A stretch of DNA of 64,000 nt, taken from contig CBDBMG010000001.1 in assembly GCA_965207375.1 (NCBI GenBank), positions 160,001 to 224,000 on the forward strand, in the 5' to 3' direction. This DNA comes from Nitrosopumilaceae archaeon (GTDB taxonomy: Archaea > Thermoproteota > Nitrososphaeria > Nitrososphaerales > Nitrosopumilaceae). The notes under the pieces are model-generated. The model made no database searches. It saw only the letters and a list, made by a program, of their open reading frames with translations, and had not been told where the DNA came from. Within the stretch, counting starts at the first letter, position 1. Each line of letters starts with the position of its first letter. Shown piece by piece: positions 23,267 to 36,360 of this stretch. Made by a program: the position numbers and the translations under genes.

Positions 23267-23699
23267 ATCTCAATCAAAAACACCCTGGGTGTAAAAAAAG
23301 GAGCGGCCAAGAACTAAAAAAAAAGAAAAAAGGCCTGGATAAAAAAGAAGTGAAATCAAAATGGGCGGCCAAGGCCTATGTAGTGTTACTGCTGATGGAA
23401 ATAAAAATTTTAATAATCACAAGTCAGGCCGCAAAACATTAACATCTGCTAATGTTTTGCGGCCTGAATTGTGATTATTAAAATTTTTATTTCCATCAGC
23501 AGTAACACTACACAGGCCCTCTGTTAATGTTTTGCGGCCTGACTTGTGATTATTAAAATTTTTATTTCCATCAGCAGTAACACTACATAGGCCTTGGCCG
23601 CCCATTTTGATTTCACTTCTTTTTTATCCAGGCCTTTTTTCTTTTTTTTTAGTTCTTGGCCGCTCCTTTTTTTACACCCAGGGTGTTTTTGATTGAGAT
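23267..23699. repeat. Long near-perfect palindrome with 178-bp arms
   Basis: 23267-23444 is the reverse complement of 23522-23699. The spacer is a third partial copy of the inner arm. Contains GCGGCCAAGAA. Confidence 0.95.
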
Positions 23700-24483
23700 T
23701 TCACTTCTTTTTTAGAAAAAACAGGTCAACTATTAGCTGTAGCTATATAGTCAGCTTCCATGCATGAGCATTAAATTACTGTTTGAGGGTGTATCATTCT
23801 TTTAAATTGTGTATAAAGTTTTGAATTTCTTTACTGATTTCATAGCTACAGCTATGAATGTGTGGTGAGCAATGTTTCTCTATCAATTTTAATTTGGCAA
23901 TGTGAGTCATGATACGATTGGAAAATTACTAAATGGTAGGCCTGAGTCAATTTTTGCTCAGTTCAGGAATTTCTATATACTTACAGATTAGATATGCTCT
24001 ATTAGAATATTTCTACCTTGATTGTTCTATTAGAGAGATCATTCTATTCAACGTTTAATTCACCCAATATACTAGCAATATGCTAGCCTTTATTATACTG
24101 GCATAGATAGCTATTTGATGCAGGCTTATACATTTATATATACCTGTAAATTGAACCACCTATAGTTGGATTAAGCTAGTTGTAGCTACAGCTTTTTCAG
24201 TAATTATAAACTGGTTTACATTAATTAGCTATTATGTATAATTTACCCATGAATGTGATGTGACAGCTAATTTTAATATGATGAATATCAAATTTTTATT
24301 ATAGTGTAAGCCACAGTGAGCACAATACAGGATAAATTGAAGGGTTGATGATCTGATATCGTCAGGTTCTACCTCTCTAGACAGCAACTCTTTGTGACCA
24401 TTATACAGCACAGGTGGTATATAGGAGCTACATTGGGAGAATTCATTGCTAAACCGATAGCTAGCCAGTTGCTATAACATGTA

Positions 24484-24718
24484 TGTGACTGACCCTGCAA
24501 AAATCAACAACGTAGCTATGTAGTTGCACAAAATCACCTAATTTGTTCATCATACTTATGCTCTATTTATAGTAGCAATCTACAATTTTCATCATAATGC
24601 AGTATCTTTTGAAATTTGTAGAATGATATTAGCTACTCCTTTAAAACTAAGATATTCATGAATATCTAACTAGGTGTAATTTGTGCTCACATGATTGATT
24701 TTCACAGGGCCTGTCACA
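24484..24718. mobile_element. TGTGAC-type MITE
   Basis: TA|TGTGACTGACCCTGCAAAAATCAA ... TTGATTTTCACAGGGCCTGTCACA|TA. Confidence 0.7.
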
Positions 24719-25229
24719 TATTTGCAAGTCAAGTAGCTGAAAATGTTAATTACATGGATATCTGGCATACAATTACATCCAGTAATCAGTTGCTGTGTTG
24801 TGACAACATACACAAGAATTTCTCTGCAAAGATAGTTGAACACAGCAATACAAAACAAGTAGCTCGCTAGCTACCTAGCAAGAGAGTTTGGAGTGGCAGA
24901 CTATGTAGCTATGCATACATACTTTCCTTGCACATATGTTAGTGTAACCTTTAATATGGTTTAATTCTTTAACTATGTATAGCTGTACTTTAATAAATTC
25001 ATATAAAACTAAGAATTGTTACAGTATTGTTAAGTGTAGTTTCTTGAACTTTCTCTGAAGATGCCTGCCATTAAAATATTTTCTTCAGTGGGGTATTGGA
25101 TATTGACTGTTGTGATTCTATGACACATTCAGGAGGGTGGTCATTTACGTATGGTAAGTCAGCTATTAGTCACAATGCTAAACTAGCATTGTGTCCAGGG
25201 CCCACCACCGTGGAGGTTGCTGATTTCGG

Positions 25230-25396
25230 GCCCCACCACCACCATCCCCTCCACCACCACGTAAAATCATCATCATCGTCGTCATCATCCTTATCATCAT
25301 CATCTTCTTCATATCATCATATCATCATCAACTTTACAAACATTTTGATTTCATAAACACCGTTGTTGTTGTTGTTGTTGTTGTTGTTATCATCAT
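25230..25396. repeat. CAC/CAT/GTT trinucleotide low-complexity tract
   Basis: Seen directly; lies just downstream of the USP-B stop. Confidence 0.85.
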
Positions 25397-25529
25397 TTAC
25401 CTATATAAAAACATACAAGATAATCAAGACAATACATGCAGCTACAATGTGGTACTAATCAGTGAGCGAATTCTATCATCTTCTTCACCCAGTTTAACAT
25501 GCATGAAGAACATGAACATCTAAAAGCAA

Positions 25530-28500
25530 TCAGCGATGACCTGAAGGTTGTTTGGCATAGAATAAAATATAAACATCACTGTTGGTTTCTGGTTCTAATG
25601 CCCTTGTTAAATGATAATCATTGACCAATGTCCATCCTCTATTCTGCTTGTGATAGGAGGTGTAATGACCTGAGAGTGCACTAGGGCCATGATGGCTAAC
25701 AATGTTGTGCACTTTGTAGCACTGCCCTTGCACACTTATAGTACCGCTGGTGACATCGTCTATAGAAACTCTTAGTTTGTGTGGTATTCCATCTACTCCA
25801 ATCACGTACAACTTAAGCTGTACAACAATAAGTTCACTAGCTCCGACCAGTTCTTGACGCGTCTGAAAAACAGCTCCATCGGCATTGCATGTACTGCAGT
25901 GTGAACCCAGCATGGTTTCCCAATCGCCTAATTTTGCCAATAATTCGTGTAATCTCACTGTGGTTGAGTCAGCTGGTATCACTAATGGCAAGATAGTGTT
26001 AGCTTCATGTCTACTGCTTGTGTATGTGCAGTTGGAACATCGTAGGTATGTTGTAATGGTATACTGTAAGCAGTTTTTAAAGGTGTACAGAACATGGCTA
26101 ATGCTTCTAAAAATTCAGCTGCATCTTGTTGTCTATTAACAGAAAAGGGTGCTCGAAGCAGTTTACGAACAGATCTGCTGGTAAGAAGGTCGACCTTTGT
26201 AGGATCAACATATAGTTATGAGCCAAATCACGAAGCACAGAATATCTACTAATTACACATGCATTTCTGACAGACCTGTGCTGCAATAAGCATTGTAATA
26301 TTGAGTTTGCATAACACGAAACACAATCATTGTTGGTAAACCCCTTACACTTGTTAAAAGTCAAACTGGTGCCTCCTGATGTTGTGCCATACTCAGCTGC
26401 AGTGTTGGTTGTGGTTGTTGCTGTACCTACTGTTGGGGTTGTTGTTGGAGATACTGTAGTAGGTCCAGTTGTAGTTGTGAAACTTGCTGTTGTGTATGTC
26501 ATAGTTGTTGGTGTAGTTGTGGTGGCTTCGGTTGATACAGATGTGGTTGTCTTCATTCTGTGCGATTTAGCAAAAATGGTTCGTGGTGATGTTGTAGTGC
26601 AATGCCCAGCTTCTCTTCTGCTACTGTCCTTAGCTGCTGTTGTTTTCATAGATGCAACAGTATTTTTAAGGTGATAAAATAATATTAACACGTCTTTTCC
26701 TCCACGAGGCCAAGGGGCAGTAGAGGCAGCCAGATCCTGAAAATGTAGCCACTTTTTTCCTTTAGTTGACAGTATGGCAAAGTAATGACAACTTGGTCTA
26801 CTGCTGGGTAAAAGGCTAACAGCTGACATGAGTTTGTATGTACTACTACCTATTGTAATTGAACTATCTGGTAAGGATATGATGTTTGTCTTTCGCTTGA
26901 TAGTATTACCATCAATGCTACTCCACACATCCATCTGCAATATCAGTACATGTTTGGCATTTACAATTTCTGTACGCACTTTCACTGGATGCTCGCAAAC
27001 ATCACAGAACTTATCTGCTGACTGAGTCCAATCCATGTACATTTACATTAGTTTGGTCAATTTCAAGCTTTTCACTGATGTCGGAATGAATAGTGGAATG
27101 ATGTGCTGTTGGTTTTCAGTAAAACTAGCAATGTTACAGTGGGTACACTAAATGTGCAATCTCACAGTATGCTGAAGTGCGGAGCTTAAGTGTGATGAAT
27201 GGTGCACTAGTGCTTGTAAAAATGCAACAGGACTTTGAGTATGTGGTCCATCAAAAGGCGCTCCTAGTTCCTGCCGGAGCTGTAGACAATCCAAATTACA
27301 CTCAGCCGTTGATGTATATGCATCACACATATCCTTGATAGCTGTACTAGTGCTCTGCTGCATAGCCTGACATACAGCAGGAGACAACAATAGGCATTGC
27401 ATAACTGAATTAGCGTAACTAGAGACGCCATCAGTATTGACAAATCCCTTGCCTTTGAAGGTAACATCTTGAGCTGGTTGGTTGACAGGTTGTTGTACTG
27501 CAGATGCAGACCTGATTGTGCACCACTGTCTATCATCAATTGCTTTGGGACGTCGTTTAGGGAGAACAAATGGTTGCATGTTAGACCTGAAATCTTTTCT
27601 AAGCCGATTATACTCTAAAATTGCTGAATCCAATGCCTTGATAGATCTAGGATCAAAGTTGATTAGGTGCAGGCCTTCAATAGTTTTAACTCTTGAAAGA
27701 GCTACATAAGCTTGACCACAGGTGAAGACAGTGTTGCCGATATCTGTTAAAACATGGTTGAGTGTGAGCCCTTGGCTCTTGTGTATTGTTATGGCATATG
27801 CAGTGGTTATAGGAAACTGAGAGCGAATGACATATACCTTGTCAAACACCTCAAACTTAGTAGTGACCCTTTTCAAGTGATGCTCTTGATTGTTACTGAA
27901 CATGATGGTTACAGTATCCACCTTGTTTGCATGATCAATGCACCATTGAACATTGCGAATCGTTCCAATTGCTCCATTAACCAATCCCAAAGTGACATCT
28001 ATGTTGCGTCGTAGCATAACTTTACAGCCTACTTTTATAGTAATTGTATTCTCTAGACCGGCAGTGTGAGTGGAGTCTTCTGAATATTTTGCTAGTTTTT
28101 GTTTAACAAGGGTTGCTGAACAGTCTACACTGTCTTCTGCAACAATGCTATACCGTTCACCAGTAAGACCCTTCAGCACCTCTGCATTGATCTGTTCACA
28201 CATATGTCTAGTTGGCAATAGACATACTGTGTCCTCTGGTAGCTCTGCAAGCTTGGACACGATTTCCTTCATGCGTTCGTTCACTGTGTCACTCCTAAGC
28301 GGTATCTTGCAATTTGACAATATTTTGATATCACTCGCTGAAAGTGCACCTAACCGAACCCTACCAAGTAGTTCAATAAATTCACCATGTTCCTTCTGTC
28401 TCATGTTGATAGTAAGTTCATCATAGCTGAACAATCGGCTCCAGATATCAGCACCTCCTACAGAACCAGTGTGTTTGTTAACAATGGTAGATGTCAGTGG

Positions 28501-29343
28501 AATGTACACTGGACTTTCAAATACAGGTGGTAACTGTAACAAATCACCAAACACCAGTATATTTTTGCAACCAAACCAACCATTTTCCATTTCTTCTGTT
28601 TGAAATATCTCAGTCAATCGGAGATGTATATATAGCAAAGTAACATGACTAACCATTGAGATCTCATCTATTATGAGCAATATCAAATTATGCAGACGTT
28701 GCCTAACAATTTTGAGGCTGTCATCTGATAGTGGACGATACTGTGGAGTTTTACCATGCTCCACAGGTAACTGCAATAACCGATGAATGGTTAGGCCGTT
28801 TATGTTGAATGCAGCAATTCCTGTTGGAGCAGTGACTGCAACATGTTTGTCAGTTGCTGAGCAAACCCATGCTTTGATTGTCTTAATTAGATAACTCTTG
28901 CCAGTACCACCACATCCACTGATGAACATTCGCAATGGCTCTGTATTGTCAGCTTGTGATGTCAGGCACTGGGCGTGCACACTGTTTCTAACTGTGTCAA
29001 ATACCCTCAACTGATCTTTATTTAAATTTTCTATCATTGTATTAACATCAGTGTCGTCATGATCTATCAAAGCAGCTTCAAAATCTGCTATAGCTTCCTT
29101 AGCCTCTGAAACCCCATGCAGTAATGGATCATTTTCATGTGCCTCTTTGTTGGAATTTTGTTCTTCAATCTCCATCTGAGTACGACACTTGTCTATTTCC
29201 ATCCTAATGGTCTTGTCTTTGCCTTGATATTGCTGTAAGCGATTGTGGTAATTTACAGCATCTGCAGATTCAGCTGTGAAGGAATAAAATGCTTCGGCAT
29301 ATGTTTCACAATCACACAATAGACTTTCACAGTCCCTCCACAA
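25530..29343 (-). pseudogene. Helitron-type PIF1 (SF1B) helicase fused to two tandem USP/peptidase C19 domains; 5'-truncated (no Rep), 2 stops and 2 frameshifts
   Basis: Helicase motifs GCGGTGKS, APTGIAA, TIHRLL, IIDEISM, FGDLLQLPPV, NMRQ, TIHKSQGLT and GQAYVALSRV. USP-A: GFVNTDGVSSYANSVMQCL, CTHC/CDVC, CHYFAI...W...QD, LILFY. USP-B: GFTNNDCVSCYANSILQCL, QQDAAEFL (shifted frame), CSNC/CSTC, HHG...SGHYTSY...WTLVND, YILFY. In-frame stops at 27148-50 and 27043-45; frameshifts near 26212 and 26068. Confidence 0.9.
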
Positions 29344-33419: not shown

Positions 33420-34103
33420 GTAAGACCTCGGGTGAGATTAGCCACGTATGTCATAGATTATGTGCATGGCATTACATATTAATTTTTGTCATTTTATCTC
33501 GGCGACAGCCGTTATAATCCCTTATCTACGTATACAGCCCCGGATAGCTCATGAAGGATAAGGAGTTCTGCAGGAATTGATCCGGTAGCCCCTTAAGCCA
33601 AATTCTATGGCTTGGCCGCTGGACCGTGCTCGGGCCGTACTGACTTTTTAAGGCGTCCCAAAAGTGCTCAGTTTGATATAGTTGCTTCTGGTGACGTTTG
33701 AATTCACTGACTCAGCTGTATTTTCTTTGATTCAGCGCTTATATATCGGCATCAATTTATGATGCTGCTTTGTTGCTTTTAGCTAGTTTTGTTAAAAAAT
33801 GAAAATCCAGGTGTGGCACAGCACTACATGTAAATAAGGTGACACGTGTAGCCGTGACAAACGCCATGGACGCACGTCATTAGGCAACGCGGTATTGTAC
33901 TGAGTCAAGTACTGGAATATGATGAATTTATATTATCAACCATTATAAACTCTTGATATTCAGTATGTAGCTATGATCATTGCATGAATATCAATTCAGG
34001 GCTATGATTATGGTTTGTGAACTAGATAGCTACAAATACATGTCAATTTGATCTATATAATCATTAATATATACAATATAATGATTTATATACACTCTTG
34101 TAG

Positions 34104-34296
34104 CTGCACCATCCAATGGTGATTTGAGATTTGCTGGTTACGGAGCCACAACTTTATGGGGACGACTGGAAATATATCTCAATCACAGATGGGGAACCAT
34201 ATGTGATTTACGGTTTGGCATCAGGGAAGCAGAAGTAGCTTGTAGACAAATGGGACTAGGCTATGCGGTCAACTACAGTGCAAGTCCTTACCAAAG
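34104..34296 (+). CDS. SRCR domain 1, 5' half
   Basis: NGDLRFAG...GRLEIYLNHRWGTICDLRFGIREAEVACRQMGLG. Not in the ORF track. Confidence 0.92.
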
Positions 34297-35610
34297 GTAA
34301 AACATTGGTTAGTTAAATTGCATCCATATATGGTATAATCTAGTTTATACTCAGCTACCTGCAGCTGGAGCTAATATATAATGTGGTTTATTGGTTTACA
34401 CATTGGTTCCAGTAAGTATAAACAGTAAATGTGATAATTTTAGAGTGAAATAGAAGCCTTGCATGTCATGTCATGGTTTTTAATTATCAGTACACTACAT
34501 AATAATATTAGATGCATAGCGACAAACCAATATTTTTTACGAAGTTACCAATAGTCTGATCTGTTAATAGAACAAATTGGATTTGGAAAACAGTTGCAAA
34601 TCACATATTTTTATTTAGTATATTTATCACTGCCACACAAACAATATTACATATTCGAAGATATTTCATAATACTATATGGAATTCAATGCTCAAATTAC
34701 TAAACTAGTTAAGAAATATTCTGGAAATATTTATGCATAAATAGTATTATTAAATACATGCAGGAATACACTGAATTTCATGTGTGATTTTCCAAAATCC
34801 GGTCACAATTATAGGTTGTTGGTTGTTGATTATTTTAGTGTTATCTGCATTGCATTTCATGGTAAGCATTATTAAAATTTCACTAACCCATTTTACAAAC
34901 ACATTTATTAGTTTTGAGTGTAGTAAATAGCTAAGGCTAATTGCTGATGCATGTGGGATAGGTTAAGCAGTTTACCTATTAATGCATTTATTTTGTGATG
35001 TTTGATTTTAGCCTCTAACTGATAATGTAATGTTATCTGCACCCCAAAACCCATTAAACCCATGTACATTAATTTATTAGAATCAGTGTGGTAATTTATG
35101 GAAAATCAAATTAGTATACTGTATAGATTGTTTTGATGGCATGTTCATAAAACTATATGTAGCTAATAGTAGAAGACAAATTTCACTGTTGGTCACACAA
35201 AGTGCATGCCTGCACGAAGCTCCTTAAAGCTTTCTGTAATTAAAACTTGTCATTGTGCAATACCAGTTCAGTGAACTGCTTAATTGTTACACATATAATT
35301 CTATTACTTTAAGGTATTGGATCACTGACACCAATAAATATATATTTTTACCAGTTTAGCCTGTTTGTCTGTGTTGATGGTAAGCACTTGCTTGTTAATG
35401 TTTCATAGTTCCACTGAACACTGGCCAGAAATTGATTTACCTGATGTTAACTCATTATATGGCTTTGCTTTTATAGTGATATATACACATATGGTATATA
35501 GTATGATATACTGTACAGCAGGAAAGCTTAGACAAGCAAAAGTTTGGCCTACGTACCATGATTCACTAAATTTGCCTAACTCTTCCCTTCCTGCTATGCG
35601 TATTATGTGA

Positions 35611-35718
<108 letters not shown>

Positions 35719-36360
35719 ATCATGCATATGTATGCAAGTTCTGTAATGGGTACAGGGATTAAAAACAATTGTATGTTTTGCAAGTTAGTACTTGTAAAGT
35801 GATTATTCTGACTTGTGTGCTTTAGATATCATGCATGATAAAGTATTTACTTTGAGAAAACTTAAGACACATGTGTGCAATATAAAATTATGCTATATGT
35901 ATGAATAGGCTTTAGTAAAGCCATTGGAGTGGTACGTGATCCATTAATAACCTGTGAATATACATATTGGGATGGTGATCACATGCTCCTCTAGGGAAGA
36001 TGGTGCTTGAACAGCTCACTGATTAGAGTTTGAGTTCATTTTCATAAAGTACTCAAAAGTGTCTTGTGCTTAAGCAATACTATAGCTACTTGTGTCCATT
36101 ATTTTCTGCTTTTAAATGTTTTACCATCTAAAAACCAGGGGCTGTGTAAGTCAAACCACTGTTAATCAACTGCTATTAATGACATCACAAGTAAGTCATG
36201 TGAGCAAAGATTCATTACTAAGGAACACTTAATAAATACTTTTTTTGGTTTAAACCTCCAGTACTTCAGCAATTTTAAGAAACCAGGCATGCACCTGGTT
36301 TAAAAATAATGTAATGAATAGTAGACACACATAAGAAATGAAAGGCACTAAAGTGTAATC

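Follow-up and report, generated by a model that had tools for sequence, protein, structure and literature searches.

A 64,000-nucleotide stretch of a genome recorded as a Nitrosopumilaceae archaeon (contig C2, positions 160001-224000; hereafter the window) carries, on its minus strand at 25530-29343, the remains of a Helitron-like transposon whose transposase ends in two tandem ubiquitin-specific protease (USP) domains. The first, USP-A, carries Ser where the catalytic Cys would be expected, and the second, USP-B, keeps the residues expected of an active deubiquitinase (DUB). On balance, we favour the reading that USP-B is a working deubiquitinase and USP-A its dead, ubiquitin-holding partner, the two forming a conserved pair in a transposase of the HLE2 group. 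The USP module of HLE2 elements has apparently never been examined; here, it takes the form of a disarmed USP joined to an armed one, a dead/live pair that appears to be conserved from sponges to at least one insect. In related arrays, the Cys-to-Ser change seems to recur, after which the catalytic His relaxes. The arrangement bears on how mobile elements engage host ubiquitin and on the role of natural pseudo-USPs, and the two domains, of about 270 residues each, are open to cheap ubiquitin-probe and binding assays.

Open reading frames (ORFs), called from stop to stop with the standard code, divide the element into four minus-strand pieces: 27148-29343 (731 aa), 26107-27042 (311 aa), 25982-26215 (77 aa), and 25530-26114 (194 aa). 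The 731-aa and 311-aa pieces belong to one frame, split by a TAG at 27148-27150 and a TAA at 27043-27045, 35 codons apart, and changes of frame at about 26210-26212 and 26073-26075 connect the last three pieces. An initial annotation of this DNA had proposed that three ORFs join into a single ancestral frame after two in-frame stops and two frameshifts, and that a hidden frame supplies the QQDAAEFL box of a USP; all four lesions were located, and the box is indeed encoded by the 77-aa frame (25982-26215). The proposed domain order, running from a PIF1 helicase through USP-A and a Thr-rich linker to USP-B across minus-strand positions 25530-29343, is likewise seen in the ORFs and in their Pfam matches. 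PIF1 (E 1.7e-27) and Pif1_2B_dom (E 2.4e-7) were matched by the 731-aa frame, and UCH was matched by the 311-aa frame (E 3.5e-7, Cys box only) and the 194-aa frame (E 1.7e-10); the 77-aa frame, searched alone against Pfam, gave no match. The parts are as follows.

27460-29343, minus strand: C-terminal tail of Rep followed by a PIF1-type superfamily 1 (SF1) helicase, identified from the Pfam PIF1 and Pif1_2B_dom matches, the Walker A motif and the homology boundary.
26662-27459, minus strand: USP-A, a pseudo-USP, identified from Ser in place of Cys, paralogy to USP-B, an AlphaFold2 (AF2) model and Foldseek.
26359-26661, minus strand: Thr-rich linker (about 100 aa) with predicted disorder, identified from its sequence, a predicted local distance difference test score (pLDDT) below 50 and only 17-24% identity to relatives that are 41% identical.
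25530-26358, minus strand: USP-B, a USP domain, identified from the Pfam UCH match and a sequence match to USP21 in the PDB; its stop codon lies at 25530-25532.

The window ORF runs unbroken from the Rep tail into the helicase, whose Walker A motif, GCGGTGKS, starts at 28917 and whose IIDEISM motif lies at 28674. In USP-A, the motif VSSYANS places a Ser codon (AGT, 27418-27420) at the catalytic Cys position; this Ser and the degraded Gln box TQSPVAFL, both described previously, are present in the window, together with a His codon at 26785-26787 and two CxxC pairs. The TAG and the TAA both fall within this domain. USP-B retains a Cys codon (TGT, 26314-26316) in VSCYANS, the QQDAAEFL box, the His of SGHY (25665-25667), the Asp of VND (25617-25619), and two CxxC pairs. 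Its earlier description as catalytically intact therefore holds for the residues, but not for the reading frame, which the window copy breaks twice, at the two frame changes given above. USP-A and USP-B are paralogues with 29-36% identity (tblastn E 4e-27).

What remains in the window is dead, decayed, and truncated at its 5' side; it is one copy of an autonomous, HLE2-group Helitron-like element. A tblastn search of the genome record with the 731-aa ORF uncovered a second, fuller copy on contig C3 (C3:311267-319217, plus strand), which starts with an ATG at C3:311267 followed by a basic repeat region. In this copy, a 1,214-aa frame matches DUF6570 (E 2e-14) and Helitron_like_N (E 1.8e-17), a 632-aa frame contains PIF1 (E 7e-26) and the first part of USP-A, and a 546-aa frame contains the remainder of USP-A, the linker, and an unbroken USP-B. 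Only here, within the 546-aa ORF, is USP-B uninterrupted, and in the read-through of this copy it matches UCH with an E value of 2e-20 (73.9 bits, against a Pfam cut-off of 23.9). The words HFHLQLW and YCTKY were also seen in the C3 ORF. The N-terminal part (L010:6471-7052, that is, C3:311471-312052), a region with no Pfam match at E <= 0.01, contains about eight basic units with a loose periodicity and the form Y..NPSP.R.RV...Y.

The C3 copy has lesions of its own, namely in-frame stops at 311468-70, 312053-55, and 317577-79 and one frameshift near 315690. Because the window copy is uninterrupted across the site of this frameshift, and because the stops of either copy answer to Gln codons in the other, a single ancestral frame of about 2,650 codons can be reconstructed, with the order N-terminal basic repeats, DUF6570, HUH Rep, PIF1 helicase, USP-A, Thr-rich linker, and USP-B. 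The two copies are joined by a single blastn alignment (C3:315404-321204 to window 29340-23520; 96.1% identity over 5,867 bp). Homology begins at about 29340-29343, where the window copy is truncated at its 5' side inside the Rep tail, which explains why it lacks Rep. These two copies, 96% identical, on two contigs and with unrelated flanks on both sides, are the only ones in the whole 4.3-Mb record.

A PIF1-family helicase follows Rep as a fusion in both copies, and the further marks of HLE2 membership, namely Rep itself, DUF6570 upstream of Rep, and dispersed copies, were each found; DUF6570 in particular places the element in HLE2 (Helitron2/Helentron). Since DUF6570 and Helitron_like_N lie upstream of the helicase in the same ancestral frame of the sister copy, the helicase is not a cellular PIF1, and the Helitron reading of the initial annotation is supported. 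Three candidate identities were rejected: a cellular PIF1 gene, by the presence of Rep in the sister copy; a segmental duplication, by the unrelated flanks, the truncation of one copy, and the contigs of other sequencing runs; and a Helentron with an endonuclease, as no match to an AP endonuclease (Exo_endo_phos) was found in the C3 ORF or in the six frames of its 2.2-kb tail. Other Helitron-like Rep/PIF1 remnants were noted at C4:379701-383415, C4:846487-846774, C3:20235-20932, and C2:422916-423131. These are 25-45% identical to the USP-bearing family and none has a USP match; several Helitron lineages therefore coexist in the host DNA.

The host itself is probably an animal. The genome record consists of four contigs totalling 4.3 Mb and scores as 99.95% complete and 0.06% contaminated by prokaryote measures; marker-gene scores of this kind are blind to host contigs. 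In C1 (2.16 Mb), 78% of bases fall within stop-free frames of at least 150 aa; in C2, C3, and C4 (2.14 Mb together), the share is 11-19%, and repeats, both dispersed ones and microsatellites, are found on these three contigs. Among relatives with a species name, the nearest to the element is a protein from the sponge Dysidea avara. The low coding density and repeats of C2-C4, taken with this sponge relative, place the element in animal host DNA rather than in a bacterium, and about half of the prokaryote genome record appears to consist of sponge-like host contigs. The ubiquitin family PF00240 had no match in the 4.3 Mb, but neither did the control families, so that this result carries no weight as a sign of absence.

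Judging from the aligned relatives, the Ser of USP-A is fixed in the sponge lineage and is not a product of decay. Six proteins of 41-95% identity were retrieved when the USP part of the C3 read-through was used in a word-indexed search; once these were aligned with the C3 copy, seven of seven rows showed SSYAN in USP-A and CYAN in USP-B. Decay is refuted by the occurrence of Ser in all seven sponge-family rows, the most distant of them only 41% identical, and also in a Rep-Hel-USP-USP protein of a whitefly. The initial annotation had left open whether intact copies would carry Cys at this position; no Cys was observed there in the sponge-family rows. Proteins of 2,065-5,000 aa with the USP part were absent from the word-indexed search, a weak piece of evidence, and the 2,998-aa whitefly protein came from a separate search of representative sequences. 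The four zinc-ribbon cysteines of USP-A are invariant across the seven rows; its His persists in the five close rows, whereas the two rows of 41% identity have Gln or Glu there.

Other sequencing runs bear on the lesions. Fifteen public runs were considered, of which 13 contain all or part of the stretch and none is recorded as RNA; contigs of four were compared, and all four cover the stretch. Such contigs are uninformative on copy number or expression. In those of X1, X5, and X8, a sense codon stands at both stop positions and both frameshifting indels are absent; relative to the window, they have one additional base at 26073, two fewer at 26210, and nine more at 28107. The fourth, X13 (depth about 2, 22 of 30 bins covered), shows the same change at 27150, its coverage not reaching the frameshift sites. 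The Ser and Cys codons are unaltered in the X1 and X5 contigs, in which every listed difference is accounted for. As the contigs of X1, X5, and X8 are free of them, the four lesions are private to the window copy. Beyond 29340, these same contigs continue with sequence resembling, on visual inspection, the Rep tail of the C3 copy.

By these comparisons, the two USP domains belong to the transposase as a conserved, in-frame component and are not debris. Between the C3 copy and the two rows of 41% identity, the helicase is 69-72% identical, USP-B 52-53%, USP-A 42-43%, and the linker 17-24%. The ratio of non-synonymous to synonymous substitution rates (dN/dS) between the two local copies is 0.41 overall and 0.18 for USP-A (12 synonymous and 8 non-synonymous differences; binomial p 4e-4). 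There is little likelihood, in our estimation, that the pair is instead a captured fragment of a host gene, carried as a passenger without a role in the life cycle of the element. Helitrons are known to capture host sequences, and the authors of HELIANO regard the extra domains of these elements as ancient captures whose part in transposition needs more work (PMC11417382). The position of the USP also varies, being N-terminal to DUF6570 in two Eretmocerus hayati proteins. However, the pair is kept in frame with RepHel down to 41% identity in sponges and in the whitefly protein, its domains (42-53% identical) are far better preserved than the linker between them (17-24%), and the lesions of the window copy are absent from the contigs of three of the four runs compared.

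More distant relatives were gathered through a phmmer search of 1.84 billion representative sequences with a 675-aa intact relative (P0001) as the query, which gave 1,273 matches at E <= 1e-3, including 170 at E <= 1e-10 and 12 at E <= 1e-30. The catalytic positions were mapped on the best 150 of these 1,273 matches, with the following residues at the position of the nucleophile.

Domains closer to USP-A (best 150 of 1,273): Cys in 5, Ser in 17, Glu in 1, a gap in 1.
Domains closer to USP-B (best 150 of 1,273): Cys in 70, Ser in 3, Arg in 1, Tyr in 1, a gap in 1.

Within this set, Ser accounts for 20 of the 23 non-Cys residues. The whitefly protein, CAH0382899.1 of Bemisia tabaci (P0016, 2,998 aa), contains DUF6570, Helitron_like_N, PIF1, and two UCH stretches, the first Ser/His and the second Cys/His. 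In a Trichogramma kaykai protein (P0074 and P0164 were examined), PIF1 is followed by a Ser/Tyr USP, and in P0166 and P0167 of Eretmocerus hayati a Cys-type USP precedes DUF6570; from these positions, the USP can be set at either end of HLE2 proteins. A rainbowfish protein, which may lie outside any transposon, carries three Ser-type USPs and one Cys-type USP in a row.

For tree building, domains were used if they covered at least 226 of 290 query positions and had both catalytic positions present. Seven rows from four Mugil cephalus isoforms were dropped before a quick tree of 92 rows was made, and 37 of the 92 rows (all tandem proteins, near neighbours, and a few single-domain rows) were picked by hand for a more careful tree. 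In the 92-row set, the catalytic His is kept in 70 of 71 Cys domains, compared with 9 of 17 Ser domains; where Ser domains lack it, two sponge relatives have Gln or Glu and six others have Tyr, Phe, Asp, or Arg. The loss of His from 8 of 17 Ser domains argues for inactivity of the Ser-bearing USPs.

The same counts bear on the proposal that USP-A is an active Ser-His-Asp hydrolase, which would give the element two live enzymes differing in chemistry or substrates. His (CHY) and Asp (FQD) are both kept in USP-A of the window family and its four closest relatives, and the Bemisia domain is also Ser/His. Yet His is missing far more often beside Ser than beside Cys (8/17 against 1/71), Gln or Glu replaces it in the two sponge relatives of 41% identity, and the Cys-to-Ser USPs of the PDB served as substrate-holding forms. 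Because His has relaxed after the Cys-to-Ser change, an enzyme with a serine nucleophile is disfavoured, and we consider it improbable.

In the trees, the USP-A and USP-B rows of sponges fall into two separate clades, each with 100/100 support, so the pair predates the split of these sponge families. Outside sponges, the Ser domain pairs with its own Cys neighbour, both in the whitefly (95/86) and in a 735-aa protein (100/99), and the fish Ser/Cys array sits in a 100/100 clade with a mullet protein that has two Cys domains. The Ser state takes six changes on the 37-row tree and forms a single clade in 0 of 200 bootstrap trees; forcing all 12 Ser rows together costs heavily (385 log-likelihood units; approximately unbiased (AU) test p 0.000125). 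Forcing sponge USP-A to group with the whitefly Ser domain costs 15.4 units with an AU p of 0.045, a borderline value for a group named post hoc. Ser-bearing domains thus probably arose several times in this group, although gene conversion between tandem domains could mimic repeated origin. The whitefly pairing may be a separate origin, given that its two USPs are nearest each other, although an origin shared with the sponge USP-A is only borderline rejected.

Both domains are modelled as USP folds. In an AF2 model of the two domains and their linker (660 aa, 16-row alignment), pLDDT is about 80-95 for both domains and below 50 for linker residues 286-385. USP-A alone, in its C3 version (19-row alignment), was predicted with a pLDDT of 88.6 and a predicted template modelling score (pTM) of 0.88. 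Foldseek comparison of this domain with the PDB is led by USP46, USP12, USP2, USP21, USP30, and USP35 (E about 1e-17, TMq 0.77-0.80), and the matches include 5txk (USP35 C450S) and 5xve (USP2 C276S), crystallised with ubiquitin according to their entry titles. For USP-B, the PDB sequence matches include USP21 (E 3.3e-8), and its Cys, QQD, and His boxes line up with those of USP-B. USP-B therefore falls within the USP family (peptidase C19, PF00443), whereas USP-A lacks the Cys nucleophile of that family; with a USP fold and sequence constraint but no catalytic Cys, it has the features of a pseudo-DUB.

Engineered Cys-to-Ser mutants of USPs generally bind ubiquitin more tightly. A trap fits the bias toward Ser among the replacements, as well as the existence of Cys-to-Ser USPs in the PDB with ubiquitin bound. 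In the mechanism that we favour, USP-A would be catalytically dead and yet retain the cleft and fingers with which to hold ubiquitin, in the manner of the engineered Cys-to-Ser USPs. USP-B would clear the transposase, or host factors present at the rolling-circle site, of ubiquitin or a similar modifier and would in this way protect these proteins from degradation or from ubiquitin-marked restriction. The initial annotation had suggested that the module might counter ubiquitin-dependent silencing or degradation. The flexible linker would let both domains share one chain or substrate, and the tethered USP-A may add avidity, or a choice of chain or substrate, for USP-B. A broader generalisation is possible, but tentative: the combination of a dead Ser-USP and a live Cys-USP may be a functional unit that rolling-circle transposons and animal USP arrays evolved repeatedly, in which the Ser domain would trap ubiquitin and choose the chain or substrate, and the live domain would cut.

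Several observations weigh against the assignment of these two roles. The window and C3 copies are both dead. The low dN/dS of USP-A is drawn from 20 differences only, and that of USP-B is 0.84, from 12 differences. The Ser and His counts come from related rows and do not represent independent events. USP-A by sequence has no PDB match at E <= 0.01, and alone it has no Pfam UCH match at E <= 0.01 in the C3 read-through; with its degraded Gln box, this means that ubiquitin binding by USP-A is not assured. The pTM of the two-domain model is 0.47, so that there is no sign of a fixed interface between the two domains.

Some of these points would suit an alternative in which USP-A does not bind ubiquitin and acts as a scaffold or allosteric partner, activating or positioning USP-B or docking the transposase on a host protein. 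Pseudo-DUBs are commonly allosteric activators or scaffolds (PMC10919355), the Gln box of USP-A is degraded and its sequence-level USP match absent, and USP-A always adjoins an active-type USP in the sponge lineage. We nevertheless regard this alternative as rather unlikely: the model offers no confident placement of one domain against the other (pTM 0.47, with a disordered linker of 100 residues), the zinc-ribbon cysteines of the ubiquitin-holding fingers are invariant, and the residue that replaces Cys is Ser in 20 of 23 cases among the best 150 of 1,273 matches, a substitution that preserves the shape of the cleft.

A role for USP-B in processing its own polyprotein was also considered. In this scheme, it would cleave the long transposase in cis, as some viral papain-like DUBs do. 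Viral DUBs often also process polyproteins (PMC9741609), and the ORF is very long, at about 2,650 codons. However, a conserved Gly-Gly was not seen by eye at a domain junction, the SGG of the linker is lost in four of the six relatives that cover it, and the second Gly of WPRGG is Ser in two, which makes such processing very improbable. Our preferred assignment remains that of a ubiquitin-holding USP-A beside a ubiquitin-cleaving USP-B.

Downstream of the coding region, the two copies share further DNA, which in the window comprises the following.

23700-25529, minus strand: non-coding 3' tail common to the window and C3 copies, defined by the blastn alignment (96.1% over 5,867 bp).
23267-23699, no strand assigned: long palindrome closing the shared DNA on its 3' side, with arms at 23267-23444 and 23522-23699.

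Translated in all six frames, the 2.2-kb C3 tail gave no Pfam match. In the window copy, the palindrome arms are 178 nt long and 100% complementary; the whole palindrome measures 433 nt there and 361 nt in the C3 copy (L010:16026-16386), and only the window copy has an internal duplication, of 74-75 nt. Each arm contains the 13-nt palindromic word ACACCCWGGGTGT, which occurs in the two palindromes and once on C4 only. Homology of the two copies stops 2-3 nt beyond the palindrome, with unrelated DNA thereafter, and a weak relative of the palindrome lies at C3:594029-594168 (74%). Helitron2 and Helentron elements insert at TT and have subterminal inverted repeats at their ends, together with a 3' palindrome (PMC4067079). 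The palindrome found here greatly exceeds in length the 3' stem-loops known from Helentrons, and it may be the true right end of the element or a nested foldback. Within the 20-kb C3 locus, the 3' terminal word has no inverted counterpart other than the palindrome itself, nor does any word at the 5' side match it; the flanks are without a clear TT, and the left side is represented by a single full copy.

Other repeats adjoin the C3 copy. The first, at L010:16381-16970 (C3:321381-321970), is about 590 bp long and contains inverted structure; dozens of matches of 70-95% identity are spread over C2, C3, and C4, and it resembles a non-autonomous element of high copy number. Immediately before the full copy, L010:5515-5893 holds a unit resembling a miniature inverted-repeat transposable element, with 26-nt terminal inverted repeats that are 96% complementary and relatives at C4:792410-792777 (95%) and C3:514646-514848. 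Elsewhere in the window, a long CA/TG microsatellite at 35403-35828 was read as THTH repeats, and a short frame at 34085-34300 presumably resembles a fragment of a scavenger-receptor cysteine-rich protein.

USP-like domains on Helitrons are not without precedent. The HELIANO study (NAR 2024, PMC11417382) counts UCH as one of 20 additional domains that Helitron-like elements stably contain, describes it as recurrent in, and almost exclusive to, HLE2, and proposes DUF6570 as an HLE2 marker. In that study, UCH and 16 other extra domains are encoded in ORFs other than RepHel, and UCH is enriched in two subgroups dominated by lungfish and axolotl; neither "sponge" nor "Porifera" appears in its main text (PMC11417382). 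The element described here resembles these HLE2 elements in bringing together DUF6570, Helitron_like_N, PIF1, and UCH, but differs, so far as the domain counts given there allow comparison, in that its USP is in frame, is doubled, and has a first copy without Cys. The earlier suggestion that a tandem C19 pair is new on Helitrons thus stands in part: UCH on HLE2 is already in print (PMC11417382), which makes the novelty narrower than first thought, but an in-frame dead/live tandem was not found described. Full-text searches of the literature, outside Repbase and the HELIANO supplements, found no description of a USP tandem or pseudo-USP on a Helitron. What appears to be new is the fixed dead/live USP pair fused to a transposase, together with the recurrence of the Ser form.

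Deubiquitinases are also carried by the Helentrons of zebrafish, whose VTDs cleave ubiquitin and NEDD8 substrates and are sometimes tandem, as in DrT1 with two VTDs (Nat Commun 2022, PMC9741609). Relatives of these VTDs include inactive ones, OTU domains were noted there but not tested, and the authors propose that such domains shield transposition proteins from degradation (PMC9741609). The resemblance extends to a DUB inside the RepHel ORF, tandem DUBs, and inactive relatives (PMC9741609). By contrast, the DUB class here is USP, an AP endonuclease belongs to their elements only, and the fusion of a dead copy beside a live one is, as far as that account goes, particular to the element described here. 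The Bemisia protein CAH0382899.1 (an "ATP-dependent DNA helicase" in UniRef) matches the element in running from DUF6570 through Rep, PIF1, and Ser-USP to Cys-USP; unlike in the sponge family, its two USPs are mutually nearest (95/86), and its USP part is only about 24-26% identical.

Among cellular proteins, the pseudo-USPs USP39/Sad1 and USP52/PAN2 similarly preserve a USP fold by selection though the canonical catalytic residues are incomplete, and pseudo-DUB partners in general include known non-catalytic scaffolds and activators (PMC10919355). USP39 has Asp at the Cys position and has also lost His, whereas USP-A has Ser; as that source presents them, none of these proteins is fused beside a live USP or carried on a transposase, and their inactivity is debated (PMC10919355). 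The same substitution in the same fold, with ubiquitin held, is found in 5txk (USP35 C450S) and 5xve (USP2 C276S), as the entry titles state. Those proteins are laboratory mutants of live enzymes, whereas the Ser of USP-A is natural and, by the alignments above, fixed. If the tentative reading of the pair as a repeatedly evolved unit is correct, the transposase would carry a two-part eraser of a specific host ubiquitin mark that would otherwise restrict transposition, and the pair would be the first USP-class counterpart of the JAMM active/inactive pairs, here on a mobile element.

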